From the NCBI GenBank assembly GCA_963772365.1, contig CAVYXA010000001.1, positions 32,001-96,000 of the forward strand: 64,000 nt of DNA, read 5' to 3'. A program made the translations under genes and the position numbers. The stretch is from an uncultured Verrucomicrobiae bacterium (GTDB lineage: Bacteria; Verrucomicrobiota; Verrucomicrobiia; Chthoniobacterales; UBA10450). Below, piece after piece: positions 59,035-64,000 of the stretch (positions are counted from its first letter, which is position 1; every line of letters starts with the position of its first letter). A model generated the notes under the pieces. It searched no databases and was not told where the DNA came from. It saw only the letters and a program-made list of their open reading frames with translations.

Positions 59035-59069
59035 TCAGCAGGAGGATTATTGCCGCCAAGGCCTGGCCG

Positions 59070-59159
59070 TGTCATGTTGAGCGGAGCGAAACAATCTCCG
59101 GCTTTTCGAGTGCGGTGAGATAAAATGACGCGAGATTCTTCGCTTCGCTCAGAATGACA
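59070..59159. repeat. Intergenic palindromic (REP/MITE-like) element
   Basis: TGTCATGTTGAGCGGAGCGAAACAATCTC ... GAGATTCTTCGCTTCGCTCAGAATGACA inverted arms. Confidence 0.7.
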
Positions 59160-59172
59160 AACTGAGGAAATT

Positions 59173-60411
59173 ATGAGCACAAACCTGATCTCCAGCGGCA
59201 CGACGGCGCGCGAGAAAATTAATTTACGCACGCCGGACGTGATGGCGGCCGTGCAGGAACAGGTCGAATCCCATTATCGCAGCGACATCGTCGATAAAAT
59301 CCGGCGGGCCGGCGGAATTATTTCGGTAGGAAATACCACTGTGCGGCTGGCGAAACAATTCGGCTTTTGCTACGGCGTCGAGCGCGCCATCGATCTCGCC
59401 TATGCCGCGCGCAAGGTGTTCAAGGATCGCCGGCTCTTCATTGTCGGCGAAATCATTCACAATCCGGAAGTCAACCAGCAGATCGCCGCGCTCGGTATCA
59501 AGAATCTCACTGGAAAAAACAAAGAGGCTGATATCTCCGATCTCGGCCCAGATGATGTCGTCATCGTGCCGGCGTTCGGGACGGAGTTGGCGATCCAGCG
59601 ACAAATCAAAGATCGCGGCTGCCAGATTGTCGATACTACCTGCGGCGACGTGATGAGCGTCTGGAAACGGGTTCGCAAGTATGCCAGCGAATCGGCTACT
59701 TCCATCATTCACGGCAAAGCCGAACACGAAGAGACCAAAGCCACCAGCTCGCGCGCTCTCGGCGACGGCAATGGACATTATCTCGTCGTGCTCACTCTGG
59801 CCGAGACCGATTACGTTTGCGATTACATCCGGCACGGCGGGGATAAGCATGCGTTTCTGGAGAAATTCAAAGGCGCCTACTCGGCGGGATTCGATCCCGA
59901 TATCCACCTCCAAACTGTCGGCGTAGCCAATCAAACCACCATGTTGCGCGGCGAGACCGAGGAAGTGCAGCGAAGAGTCCGGAAAGCAGTTGTCGATCGT
60001 GACGGCCCCGAGCTAGCCCAAAAGAATTTCCGATTCTTCGACACCATCTGCGGCGCAACACAGGAACGTCAGGATGCGTTGCGCGAGCTTCTTAACGTGT
60101 CGATGGATTTGCTCCTGGTCGTCGGCGGTTACAACAGCTCCAACACATCGCATCTGGCCGAGATGGGCGAAGAGAAATTGCCCACCTATTTTGTACTCAA
60201 TGCCTCACGACTCGTTTCCGCGAACGAGATCAAGCATTACGATCTACACGAGAAACGCGAAGTCGTTTCCCATTTCTGGCTCCCGCCCGGCCCAGCCGTC
60301 ATTGGCATCACCGCCGGCGCATCCTGCCCGAACAATCTGATTGAAGAAACATTGATCCGCCTCTTCGAGCTACGCGGTATTTCGCGCGACCAACTTGATC
60401 TCGCCGCGTAA
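59173..60411 (+). CDS. ispH: 4-hydroxy-3-methylbut-2-enyl diphosphate reductase
   Basis: GFCYGVERA, IIHNP, DTTC, HEET, NQTT, DTICGATQERQ, GGYNSSNT, TAGASCP. Confidence 0.96.
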   Translation: MSTNLISSGTTAREKINLRTPDVMAAVQEQVESHYRSDIVDKIRRAGGIISVGNTTVRLAKQFGFCYGVERAIDLAYAARKVFKDRRLFIVGEIIHNPEVNQQIAALGIKNLTGKNKEADISDLGPDDVVIVPAFGTELAIQRQIKDRGCQIVDTTCGDVMSVWKRVRKYASESATSIIHGKAEHEETKATSSRALGDGNGHYLVVLTLAETDYVCDYIRHGGDKHAFLEKFKGAYSAGFDPDIHLQTVGVANQTTMLRGETEEVQRRVRKAVVDRDGPELAQKNFRFFDTICGATQERQDALRELLNVSMDLLLVVGGYNSSNTSHLAEMGEEKLPTYFVLNASRLVSANEIKHYDLHEKREVVSHFWLPPGPAVIGITAGASCPNNLIEETLIRLFELRGISRDQLDLAA

Positions 60412-60493: not shown

Positions 60494-60697
60494 ATGAACT
60501 TGCGCTTGGTAGTGGAGCATGATCCGGAGAGCAAGCGCTGGGCGGCTTTCTTTCCGGAACTGCCTGGGTGCGCTTCGGCAGGTGATACCGAGCAAGAAGC
60601 GATCGACAACGCAAAGGAGGCGCTCGAACTCTGGTTTGAACCCACTCCGGCTGCGGTTCCTCCCGGCGCTAAGGTCGTGGAAGTTGCTCTTACGTGA
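60494..60697 (+). CDS. hicB: HicB family antitoxin (short form)
   Basis: FPELPGCASAGDTEQEAIDNAKEAL. Confidence 0.9.
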   Translation: MNLRLVVEHDPESKRWAAFFPELPGCASAGDTEQEAIDNAKEALELWFEPTPAAVPPGAKVVEVALT

Positions 60698-60912
60698 GCG
60701 AGCGGTTTCCAGTGCGCAGCGCTCGTGACGTGATTCGGGTGTTGCGCAAGCATGGTTTCGCAATGCTCCGCCAGCGCGGTAGCCATCAGAAATGGCGACA
60801 TCCCAACGGGCGGCAAGTAATCGTCGCCGTGCACGGCAACAAACCGATTCCGATCGGTACATTAAAAAGTATCATCGAAGGAAGCGGATTAACCGTGGAG
60901 CACTTTCGATAG
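60694..60912 (+). CDS. hicA: HicA family toxin
   Basis: LRKHGF..RQRGSH..VAVHG..GTLKSI. Confidence 0.92.
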   Translation: MSERFPVRSARDVIRVLRKHGFAMLRQRGSHQKWRHPNGRQVIVAVHGNKPIPIGTLKSIIEGSGLTVEHFR

Positions 60913-60916
60913 AGGC

Positions 60917-61025
60917 GGCATGACCGCTGGCGCATCCTGTCCCGAATAACCTGATTGAAGAAACATTGATCCGCCTCTTCGAATTACGCGGCATTTCGCG
61001 CGAACAACTCGGACTCGCGGCGTAG
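60917..61025 (+). repeat. Diverged direct copy of the ispH 3' end (60304-60411)
   Basis: 14 substitutions and 1 inserted base over 108 nt by manual alignment; ends in TAG. Confidence 0.92.
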
Positions 61026-61074: not shown

Positions 61075-61466
61075 GCGCCTCAGCATTTCTGAAATCGCGA
61101 TGACTGCGATAACGCTGCGGACGACGAGTATAACGAGAACGTATTCCCGCCTCAGCATTTCTGAAATCGCGATGACTGCGATTTTGCCCTTGGACGGCGC
61201 TGGCGAGCACTCTCTGCCGCCTCAGCATTTCTGAAATCGCGATGACTGCGATTGCTGCCGCGCCTGCTACCTGGCCGATACTACTTATCCGCCTCAGCAT
61301 TTCTGAAATCGCGATGACTGCGATGATACTTCCAAGATCGATAACGATCAATGGCATGTCCGCCTCAGCATTTCTGAAATCGCGATGACTGCGATCCGGC
61401 AGCCAAACAGTGGGCTACAACGATTTCGCGCCGCCTCAGCATTTCTGAAATCGCGATGACTGCGAT
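61075..61466 (-). CRISPR. CRISPR array, 6 x 36-nt repeats, 5 spacers of 34-36 nt
   Basis: Repeat on minus strand ATCGCAGTCATCGCGATTTCAGAAATGCTGAGGCGG at 61075, 61147, 61217, 61289, 61360, 61431; only the cas-distal copy has a mismatch. Confidence 0.97.
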
Positions 61467-61644: not shown

Positions 61645-61738
61645 CTCGCTAGTCTCGTTTATCGCGATTTCAAAGAGCTGCTTCTCCAATGGCGGAAGAG
61701 AAGTGGTCGGTGGCAGAGGCCTTTCGGCTTTGTTTGCC
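61645..61738 (-). ncRNA. Predicted tracrRNA
   Basis: Anti-repeat CAGCUCUUUGAAAUCGCGAU (61661-61680), hairpin CUUCUC/GAGAAG with loop CCGCC matching repeat end GGCGG, 5' GGCA/UGCC stem with GCCGAAAGGC hairpin. Confidence 0.8.
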
Positions 61739-61804: not shown

Positions 61805-62095
61805 CTAGATCACAGTGACGCGCGTTCTGACTGTGTAAGGTAAACCCATCGCTTCGATGATCAGGCTTGCGTCATTTGAGCTTGGTCCAAGCGAGACGAA
61901 CAAAACCTGGTCTTCATCATGATTCAAGATTGGGTGAAGAGATGTTTTCAGATTTGCCATCCTCAGATCGTCGAGCGGACATTCGAAAACAGAGTACTGC
62001 AAGCGCACGCCAAAGCCTTCGAGGACACGCGCGACCTGTCGCAAACGTTTCGGGTTGCAAATATCGTAACTGACGAGATAGCGGAGCCGGCTCAT
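61805..62095 (-). CDS. cas2: CRISPR-associated endonuclease Cas2
   Basis: YLVSYDICNPKRL, RLQYSVFEC; ATGA overlap with cas1. Confidence 0.95.
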   Translation of the reverse strand: MSRLRYLVSYDICNPKRLRQVARVLEGFGVRLQYSVFECPLDDLRMANLKTSLHPILNHDEDQVLFVSLGPSSNDASLIIEAMGLPYTVRTRVTVI

Positions 62096-63903
62096 CGCGT
62101 TGTGAAACCGTGGTAAGCGATAGCCTCGCCGCGCACGAAGCGCCAAAGTTGTCGCGCCTGCACTTCGAGCATTCGTCGATAAGCCATCTTGTAGACGAAC
62201 TGCGGATGACTTACTTCCGCGTCGAGCCGGCGGAACCATGCCTCCCAAAATGCTTTTCGACCTCGCTCGTTTAGAAAAGTGCCGCTGGCGCTGCGAATGA
62301 AATCGTCTGCGCCGACTTCGCCGCGATTCACGAGTGAGATGGCGACGCTGTCTGCGATGAGGGGACGAAATTCTTCCATCAAATCCAGCGCGAGCGCGGG
62401 CCGGCCGTAGCGCGGCTGATGCATGAAGCCGAGAAACGGATCGAGTCCCACTGCGTCGCAGACGCCGGTGAGTTCTTTGGCCAGCATGGAGTAGCCTAAC
62501 GAGAGCAACGCGTTCGCGGGATCGCGAGGCGGACGGCGATTGCGTCCACGCCAGTCGAATTTCCACGATTCTTTCAACATCGATTCGAACTGTTCGAAGT
62601 AGAGCGCGGCGGCCGTGCCTTCGATGCCGAGCAATTCCGTCATGTCATGGGCCGACTCCGTGGCGTCGCGAAAACCGGCAAGCAATTGCAAGACGCGATC
62701 AGGCACATCGCCATTGCGCATGAGCATGGTGCGTTGATTGTGAATTTTCGCGCGCACCACTTCACGCGCGAGTTGCAGACGCACGCCGGGGAGTTCGAAG
62801 AGACGATATTGTCCGCGGCGCGCGTCCACGCCACTCACCGGCAAGGCGCGCAACGTCCCGAGAAAACGCCCCGCTGGGCTAAAGTAAGCGACGTCGATTC
62901 CGAGCTCGAGGCACGTCTCGATCGCCTGCGCGGTTAATTGAATCGCGCCATAACAGTAAATCGCGCGTAGTTGATGCCCAGGCAGCTTGCGCGCTTCCGC
63001 GCCCTTCACCGAGACGACAAACTGATCGCCGCGCTGTCCAATTTGCGCTCCCGGAGTTTGCACCACCAACACTTCGCCGTCGTCGTGCTCCGGGCGCGGC
63101 GGCTGTAGAGTATGGGCCTTCTTTCCAGATTCGGCTGCGAATTCGAGCGCTTCGAAAATCTGCTCGCGCACATGATCCTCCGCTGGCGCGCTGAACCCGA
63201 AGCGAAGTTGATCATCCGGCTTCGCGGCTTTGCCCGCTCGCGCCCACCACCAGGACTCGTTAGGCAAACAGATCGGATACGCCGAACAATACAGACATCG
63301 CGGATCGTTTTTCAGCGGAGGCGGGCACTTGCCACTCGCCGCGACTGCGCGCGTTTGCTCGATGGTAGTTAGAACTTTCGCAAACAACTCTTCACTCAAT
63401 TCCAGTGGCACACGCCGCTTCTCCGCTGCGTAATAAATTGCGGCGCGCGTGGCGTTGATACCGATCTCGCGCAGCAAGAGCGCATGCGCGGCTACCTGAA
63501 TGGCATCGGGCTCTTTCGCAACACGCTCGCCGTTGTTATCGCGTCGCGCCGACCCTTTTTTGTAATCGACAATCTCCGCGCCGTCCGGACCGCCCTCGAT
63601 GAGATCGACGACGCTAATCAATCCCAGCGACGCGCTTTCCAACCGCAAACTTCGCAGCGTCGCGCCTTCAGGAAGATTTTCGCCGAGCGCTTTCAGTTTC
63701 TCTTCATCGACACGCGAGGCGCGATCGACATTGCGATGCGCATGCGACCCTTCGATCGTATCGGCGTTCTCCTGAAAAATATTCTCGACCCACTGATAAT
63801 AAAAAAGCCGCGGGCAATAGATGAAATTATGCAACCGCCGCACCGGCATCGGCGGCTGCGATTCAAGCCCGCCTTGCGTTTGCACCGGCGCATCGATTGA
63901 CAT
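62092..63903 (-). CDS. cas1: Cas4-Cas1 fusion
   Basis: Cas4: YCPR, DLIE..DYKKG, RCLYCSAYPIC; Cas1: LGIEG, RRPPRDPANALLS, GFMH, LALDLMEEFRP; start could be the later MPVRRL. Confidence 0.95.
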   Translation of the reverse strand: MSIDAPVQTQGGLESQPPMPVRRLHNFIYCPRLFYYQWVENIFQENADTIEGSHAHRNVDRASRVDEEKLKALGENLPEGATLRSLRLESASLGLISVVDLIEGGPDGAEIVDYKKGSARRDNNGERVAKEPDAIQVAAHALLLREIGINATRAAIYYAAEKRRVPLELSEELFAKVLTTIEQTRAVAASGKCPPPLKNDPRCLYCSAYPICLPNESWWWARAGKAAKPDDQLRFGFSAPAEDHVREQIFEALEFAAESGKKAHTLQPPRPEHDDGEVLVVQTPGAQIGQRGDQFVVSVKGAEARKLPGHQLRAIYCYGAIQLTAQAIETCLELGIDVAYFSPAGRFLGTLRALPVSGVDARRGQYRLFELPGVRLQLAREVVRAKIHNQRTMLMRNGDVPDRVLQLLAGFRDATESAHDMTELLGIEGTAAALYFEQFESMLKESWKFDWRGRNRRPPRDPANALLSLGYSMLAKELTGVCDAVGLDPFLGFMHQPRYGRPALALDLMEEFRPLIADSVAISLVNRGEVGADDFIRSASGTFLNERGRKAFWEAWFRRLDAEVSHPQFVYKMAYRRMLEVQARQLWRFVRGEAIAYHGFTTR

Positions 63904-63921
63904 AGCTAACTATCTTAGCTA
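63903..63921. promoter_or_regulatory. Inverted repeat, candidate antitoxin operator
   Basis: TAGCTAA-CTATC-TTAGCTA just upstream of the Phd-like start. Confidence 0.5.
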
Positions 63922-63932
63922 ATCTCGTCGCT

Positions 63933-64000
63933 GTGACGCAAGCGACCATTCATCAGGCAAAGACGCACCTCTCCAAACTCATTCGCAAAGCGCTCGACGG
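63933..64000 (+). CDS. Phd/YefM family antitoxin, truncated by window edge
   Basis: GTG start, MTQATIHQAKTHLSKLIRKALDG is the typical prevent-host-death N-terminus. Confidence 0.85.
   Translation, partial: MTQATIHQAKTHLSKLIRKALD

Follow-up and report, generated by a model that had tools for sequence, protein, structure and literature searches.

Loci of CRISPR subtype V-B, whose effector is Cas12b (C2c1, NF033949), carry their tracrRNA between cas2 and the leader (PMC6547450) and require it for function (PMC6546382), and an inactive variant, V-B3, has altered RuvC catalytic residues (PMC12669027). Toxin-antitoxin (TA) genes inside cas cassettes are also on record: vapBC pairs are interspersed in the cas cassettes of Sulfolobales (PMC4390879). 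A further related phenomenon is the insertion of restriction-modification (RM) genes with a long duplication of the target, which often spans a start or stop codon and proceeds without a mobile element (Furuta et al. 2010, PMC2853133; reviewed in PMC3874152). The route that we propose below for a TA pair is already described for RM genes.

The DNA analysed here, referred to as the window, is a stretch of 64,000 nucleotides corresponding to C1:32001-96000 of genome G000, a window position being the C1 position minus 32000. Its last part and the adjoining DNA contain a type V-B CRISPR island composed of cas12b, orf6N, a cas4-cas1 fusion, cas2, a predicted tracrRNA and an array of six repeats. 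The island, about 9.8 kb in length, is bounded by two host genes on the plus strand, ispH (lytB; 59173..60411; PF02401, NF009911) at the left edge and Ku (C1:102183-103052; TIGR02772), beyond the window end, at the right edge. Behind ispH follow, also on the plus strand, a hicB-hicA TA pair (hicB 60494-60697, hicA 60694-60912; PF15919, PF07927) and a displaced duplicate of the ispH 3′ end (60917..61025; 108 bp at 88% identity, one nucleotide being inserted). The minus strand carries the CRISPR array (61075..61466; repeats of about 36 nt and five spacers of 34-36 nt, the orientation being inferred from the leader on the cas2 side), the predicted tracrRNA anti-repeat, assigned by its pairing energy with the repeat (61660..61681), cas2 (61805..62095; PF09827, TIGR01573) and the cas4-cas1 fusion of 603 aa (62092..63903; NF049935), which scores 595 bits against the cut-off of 560 for the NCBIfam model cas4g_cas1g. 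The predicted TA promoter/operator (63897..63925, plus strand), assigned from its sequence and its retention upstream of phd in related loci, precedes a phd/yefM antitoxin gene of 89 aa (plus strand; PF02604, TIGR01552), of which 63933..64000 lies in the window and which extends over C1:95933-96202; its PF02604 score is 31.6 bits with a cut-off of 29.8. The earlier note had correctly described this gene as divergent from cas4-cas1 at a distance of 30 bp (GTG at 63933 on the plus and ATG at 63903 on the minus strand) and the CRISPR module as flanked by TA genes on both sides (hicB-hicA at 60494-60912, phd at 63933). Annotation past the window edge, as it had advised, yielded besides the remainder of phd a PIN (VapC-like) toxin gene of 129 aa on the plus strand (C1:96209-96598; PF01850, 63.9 bits) and, on the minus strand, a decayed cas4 5′ end (C1:96607-96766; 75 bp at 88% and a further relic segment), an ORF6N-domain gene, orf6N, of 167 aa (C1:96782-97285; PF10543) and cas12b in two frames (C1:97300-101968; NF033949, PF22202, PF22126).

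The GC content of the island (52–60%) is the same as that of its flanks. Ku is found at most 0.6 kb from ispH in 8 of 15 published genomes of the same family, and in the same-genus genome G012 the two genes do not adjoin; Cas12b is present in one of 200 other family genomes searched. Judged by the names of its homologs, the host is a Verrucomicrobium. Outside the island, a REP-like palindromic pair between an L,D-transpeptidase-like gene and ispH (window 59068-59140) and a RAYT-like ORF (C1:107130-107777) were recognised by eye.

The apparently empty effector slot upstream of cas4-cas1 is an effect of the window edge. The near end of cas12b (C1:97300) is located 1,300 bases beyond the last window position and 1.4 kb from the cas4 start, and a whole-genome profile search returned the two halves of this gene as the sole Cas12b matches, both outside the window. 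As regards Cas12b, the statement of the earlier note that the window holds no effector is therefore borne out, and among the explanations it offered, displacement beyond the TA genes turned out to apply, the displaced gene being an ordinary cas12b. A cas12b directly behind the TA pair, which the note had equated with a simple TA insertion, is essentially what is found, except that the cas4 relic and orf6N intervene.

The N-terminal part of cas12b (C1:99353-101968) encodes 871 aa to past RuvC-I and the C-terminal part (C1:97300-99357) 685 aa including RuvC-II and III, giving a protein of about 1,555 aa. Their matches to NF033949 abut, covering profile positions 1–705 (229.6 bits) and 704–1252 (385.6 bits) at a cut-off of 150 bits. 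The protein belongs to a large, mostly Verrucomicrobia-associated group (701 homologs), and relative to eight intact homologs (P0001-P0008, 1531-1589 aa) its N-terminal half shows 59–63% and its C-terminal half 62–68% identity. In an alignment with 15 homologs the RuvC residues D, E and D are all kept within VDFG, IEDL and DADLN, which we take to be the RuvC catalytic motifs. A small clade of nine sequences, including the G000 protein, has GSVDFGLHADSWAM in RuvC-I in place of SVDLGQRDAGA; an N-terminal insertion with retention of the catalytic D was noticed in this clade (P0001-P0008; L001:11353-13968). The clade, with its length of about 1,550 aa and remodelled RuvC-I, is a by-product of modest value, for which the intact members P0001-P0008 are at hand. 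Unusually long Cas12b frames of about 1,665-1,775 aa, which may contain inserted domains, occur in L071, L075, L087, L093, L127, L154 and L162. The C-terminal half as a lone query found no related loci in genome and metagenome contigs; alignment searches did retrieve relatives.

The cas12b reading frame is interrupted by one extra base (+1 frameshift) within a CCC run near C1:99357, a site at which homolog P0005 has the matching length. Taken at face value, the resulting stop, which is present in the assembly, would mean a recent inactivation of cas12b that leaves behind a decaying island of adaptation module, array and two TA pairs, the latter perhaps stabilising it. The short array of five spacers would fit such a history, as would the similar split of cas12b in 7 of 105 full-length related loci, some of which may be genuine pseudogenes; a maintenance of cas cassettes by TA genes has moreover been suggested for Sulfolobales (PMC4390879). 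We nevertheless regard a real frameshift as unlikely, since the lesion is the only one in 4.67 kb, both halves are equally conserved, the catalytic residues are intact, no self-targeting spacer would select for the loss of cas12b, and comparable single-base breaks affect gatA and other host genes. The latter were recognised by comparing 400 kb of genome G012 with G000, a stretch that includes orthologous coding sequence of about 189 kb. An initial count of 12 junctions could not assign the broken side, and the broken genome was identified by codon phase, with 4 multi-base events of 18 and 1 of 6 controls left out, and then by a hexamer model. According to the hexamer model the frame changes in G000 at all 22 candidate sites and is maintained at all five control sites; 16 of the 22 are placed inside recognisable ordinary genes, the other six having been dropped as gene boundaries or unclear cases. 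Affected genes include aroB and gatA, the latter being broken at position 354 of the 466 positions of its profile. As gatA is normally essential and yet broken, the assembly carries indel errors. Their rate of 16 per 125–189 kb, or about one indel per 8–12 kb of coding DNA, implies that a gene of 4.67 kb contains one or more errors with a probability of 33–45%. On these grounds the extra base in cas12b is probably an assembly or sequencing error, and split genes from the G000 assembly should generally be read with caution; the single-base frameshifts at C4:115580, C1:893866 and 14 other sites, gatA and aroB among the genes hit, are cases in point. Because the single frameshift most likely reflects a sequencing error, the cas12b system is predicted to be functional as a tracrRNA-dependent dsDNA nuclease.

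The predicted tracrRNA is positioned between cas2 and the leader, and its anti-repeat forms a duplex of -36.3 kcal/mol with the repeat, compared with a mean of -24.9 and a best value of -32.7 kcal/mol in 200 mononucleotide shuffles. None of the spacers matched any of 50,697 phage records. A search of the five spacers against the own genome gave no self-target, the best off-array match being 16 nt long, and self-targeting as a reason for a loss of cas12b is thereby left unsupported.

The palindrome reported in the earlier note does touch the cas start as claimed. It is an inverted repeat of TAGCTAA (63903-63909) and TTAGCTA (63915-63921) separated by CTATC, and its first base pair is that of the A in the cas4 ATG. 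On the plus strand it is embedded between the hexamers TTGACA (63897-63902) and TAATCT (63920-63925), which are spaced by 17 nt, and the phd GTG follows 7 nt on. The palindrome is inferred to be the operator for autorepression by Phd(-PIN) within a putative leaderless promoter of the sigma-70 type. At the DNA level, 12 of 200 family genomes contain homologs of the TA region, and seven of these loci (L180-L186, from seven relatives) include the 5′ end. In each of the seven, the match begins at or just before TTGAC, the region upstream of phd consists of TTGAC, the first half-site, 4–5 nt and TTAGCTAA, and the phd start is found 6–11 nt past a TAAnnT-like hexamer. No cas gene is present within 1.5 kb on either side of any of the seven, the neighbours being unrelated genes. 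As the palindrome recurs upstream of phd in loci devoid of cas genes, it is a component of the TA cassette and not of the cas genes. The predicted TA promoter, whose -10 hexamer matches at 3 of 6 positions, was not among the calls of a consensus promoter scanner, which returned two other promoter sites (0.8 expected) and one terminator-like site (2.6 expected). Read on the opposite strand, the CAT of the TA box TTGACAT is the called cas4 ATG, and the Cas4 N-terminus reads MSIDA.., that of its relatives MSDA.. or similar. The junction might have been tolerated by virtue of the -35 box TTGACAT, which would supply an in-frame ATG on the opposite strand, and an internal ATG at codon 19 of cas4 could serve as a fallback start.

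The history of the site is indicated by the cas4 relic. Its ATG is situated 15 nt after the orf6N stop codon, and it reads MSDAPVQTQGG.. before an internal deletion of 79 nt. Since the relic directly follows orf6N, the old gene order was cas12b-orf6N-cas4, and this order, without TA genes, is indeed realised in L021, the closest fetched relative. More generally, in 117 distinct related loci that contain cas12b as well as cas4, the two genes adjoin in 80 and are separated by an insert in 37. A family scan of 37 proteins from such gaps identified HicA/HicB-like proteins in seven loci, PIN, PemK and MNT-HepT proteins in one each, Fic in three, 23S-IVP in four and ORF6N in five, with two further ORF6N cases detected by tblastn (7 of 117 in total). 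TA-type or Fic genes are accordingly found in 13 of the 117 loci (HicA/HicB, PIN, PemK or MNT-HepT in 10, Fic in 3). An independent case of insertion is provided by L056, in which a divergent hicBA pair lies between cas12b and cas4-cas1 together with a 91-bp copy of the cas4 start at 89% identity; L104 contains a corresponding 92-bp copy at 84%. We therefore envisage that a Phd-PIN cassette entered an ordinary V-B island at the cas4 start, the likely route being recombination with incoming DNA in which the cassette adjoined a diverged but working copy of the cas4 5′ end. The old cas4 5′ end is found displaced and decayed behind the PIN toxin gene, and hicBA might have entered at the ispH end by the same route.

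Several other properties of the cas12b-cas4 gaps were recorded. The hicA gene of L056 (L056:4637-5263) is internally deleted (43 aa). ORF6N genes occupy the gap in L021, L069, L108, L121, L135, L141, L174 and the G000 locus (L001:8782-9285) and are located upstream of cas12b in L067 and L155; they might be selfish hitch-hikers or regulators, and a literature search for ORF6N in connection with CRISPR found no related paper. Gaps of 223–305 nt without an ORF of at least 45 aa occur in L070, L081, L082, L143, L156, L164 and L172, and may harbour a non-coding RNA or represent an alternative site for the tracrRNA. Proteins of a recurrent family, about 150-220 aa long, without a Pfam match and Fic-like by eye, are encoded at L085:6638-7270, L104:10623-11279, L144:12361-12804 and L178:4467-5093, the L104 member being overlapped by a small ORF that is read in a different frame.

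The contact of the operator with the cas4 start codon makes it physically possible that the TA repressor controls cas4-cas1, as surmised in the earlier note. In an evolved form of such control, the repressor would have been co-opted, cas4-cas1-cas2 would be transcribed from a divergent leaderless promoter over the TA operator, and adaptation would be released when stress or infection leads to degradation of the antitoxin. Consistent with this idea, the 18 bases immediately ahead of the cas4 ATG all belong to the operator, the ATG itself derives from the TA -35 box, a weak minus-strand promoter-like sequence, TTGCGT-18-TAAGAT, lies 8 nt before the ATG (7 of 12 matches, by eye), and a divergent hicBA pair occupies the same place in L056 and L176. 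However, no Phd homolog was detected among the 158 cas12b loci retrieved or in two additional stretches from relatives, the cargo of the slot is heterogeneous and mostly co-directional, and the same TTGACAT/palindrome end exists in homologs without a divergent gene. The scanner calls no promoter at the operator, and TA pairs are positioned likewise at ispH, a thrS-like gene (name read from the sequence) and other housekeeping gene ends. Co-option is on balance quite improbable, and if the TA repressor affects cas4-cas1 at all, this would be an accident of the junction rather than an evolved module.

Duplicated gene ends beside TA genes are not confined to the island. TA genes of G000 were listed independently by Pfam family, which gave 26 non-redundant positions; flanking direct repeats of 57–205 bp are associated with 10 of them, compared with 4 of 300 random windows (Fisher p 1e-9), the other 16 having none. 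Eight of the ten repeats reach into the beginning or end of a larger gene; examples of TA pairs flanked by such repeats are C1:1169636-1170630, C3:111565-112353, C1:1211098-1211771, C1:1746483-1747517 and C3:7435-8488. Between the copies of these eight, 122 differences were counted, 81 synonymous and 41 non-synonymous, with 84 at third codon positions; 9 of 13 differences are synonymous in the ispH copy and 6 of 9 in the cas4 relic. Mostly synonymous differences imply that both copies were under selection while diverging, and they point to a donor allele that would have been recombined in with the TA genes attached. The alternative that the duplicated ends arose within the genome, by tandem or target duplication, and subsequently decayed without any donor allele may invoke the indels of the relics (the 79-nt deletion in cas4, the additional nucleotide in ispH), which attest to some time of decay. 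Neutral decay, however, predicts about 24% synonymous differences in contrast to the observed 66%, and 84 of the 122 differences fall on third positions; an internal origin is hence very unlikely. Among relatives, repeats flank 7 of 27 HicA and 6 of 25 Phd loci compared with 3 of 200 control windows, after removal of four loci with short flanks, of the own-genome loci and of two loci from an unpublished genome; by eye, about half of these repeats are REP-like or tRNA-like and not gene ends. The Phd-PIN homolog loci in relatives have no flanking repeat (0 of 7). Elsewhere in G000, C1:377488-379128 contains tandem near-identical copies of a small ORF of 86 aa, GIY-YIG-like by eye.

A novel, distant, trans-acting or lost effector, which the earlier note had put forward as further options, is practically eliminated by the cas12b gene just past the window edge, in its usual orientation and as the only Cas12b match of the genome.

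Taken together, the locus is best explained as an ordinary V-B island into which a TA pair was probably inserted by recombination, with the operator brought along by the cassette and the cas12b frameshift being a likely error; we assign this reading a probability of roughly 85%. A bolder proposal would be that TA cassettes of these Verrucomicrobia spread without a recombinase of their own via donor gene ends, leaving a relic behind, and that in the present case the -35 box became the start of cas4-cas1 and thereby placed adaptation under the TA repressor as a stress switch; this extended version we consider improbable. The finding as originally posed matters little, as it comes down to where the window edge cuts a normal V-B locus, and cas cassettes containing TA pairs are already known. 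The synonymous bias is of modest value, in that it offers a visible route for the movement of chromosomal TA genes without a mobile element, an old question. In the open-access literature covered, no title or abstract start reports such an insertion for TA pairs.

In comparison with known systems, the G000 locus resembles subtype V-B in the co-directional arrangement of cas12b with a cas4-cas1 fusion and cas2, in the predicted tracrRNA position (layout of PMC6547450) and in the intact RuvC triad, and differs in the presence of orf6N and a TA pair between effector and cas4 and in the single split of cas12b in this assembly. Judged from the sequence, all testable hallmarks of the subtype appear to be present except an uninterrupted effector frame. 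The best structure match of its Cas12b is PDB 9KLN; the V-B structures 5U30, 5WQE and 5WTI have chains of 1,108–1,137 aa, considerably shorter than the G000 protein. The Phd-PIN genes correspond to a type II Phd/YefM-PIN (VapBC-like) TA pair in that the antitoxin precedes the toxin at a distance of 6 nt and an inverted repeat conserved in homologs resides in the promoter spacer, and deviate solely in their place. With the vapBC pairs of Sulfolobales they share a position inside or flanking a cas cassette; the G000 case, in contrast, concerns a bacterial class 2 system, and a duplicated gene end makes its route of entry visible.

Insertion with long target duplication was reportedly also treated, for RM genes, by Nobusato et al. 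in 2000. In both the RM cases and G000, an addictive gene pair is involved, the insert lacks an integrase or transposase, and the repeats are longer than 30 bp, vary in length and often extend across a translation start or stop, by which the target gene is kept intact (PMC2853133). Of the features defining the class in that paper, a repeat above 30 bp, an insert below 20 kb (here 0.7–0.8 kb containing phd and PIN only) and the absence of a mobility gene are all found in G000. An empty site is represented by L021, in which orf6N is directly followed by cas4, and by the 80 of 117 loci without insert, these being homologous loci and not strains of one species. The cargo, however, is a TA pair and not RM genes, and the DNA-break explanation given for RM genes in PMC2853133 is therefore inapplicable. 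The G000 case is further distinguished by repeat copies that differ by 5–25%, mostly synonymously, and by the involvement of 10 of 26 TA genes in a single genome. The TA insertion works like the long-target-duplication class but is no RM case.
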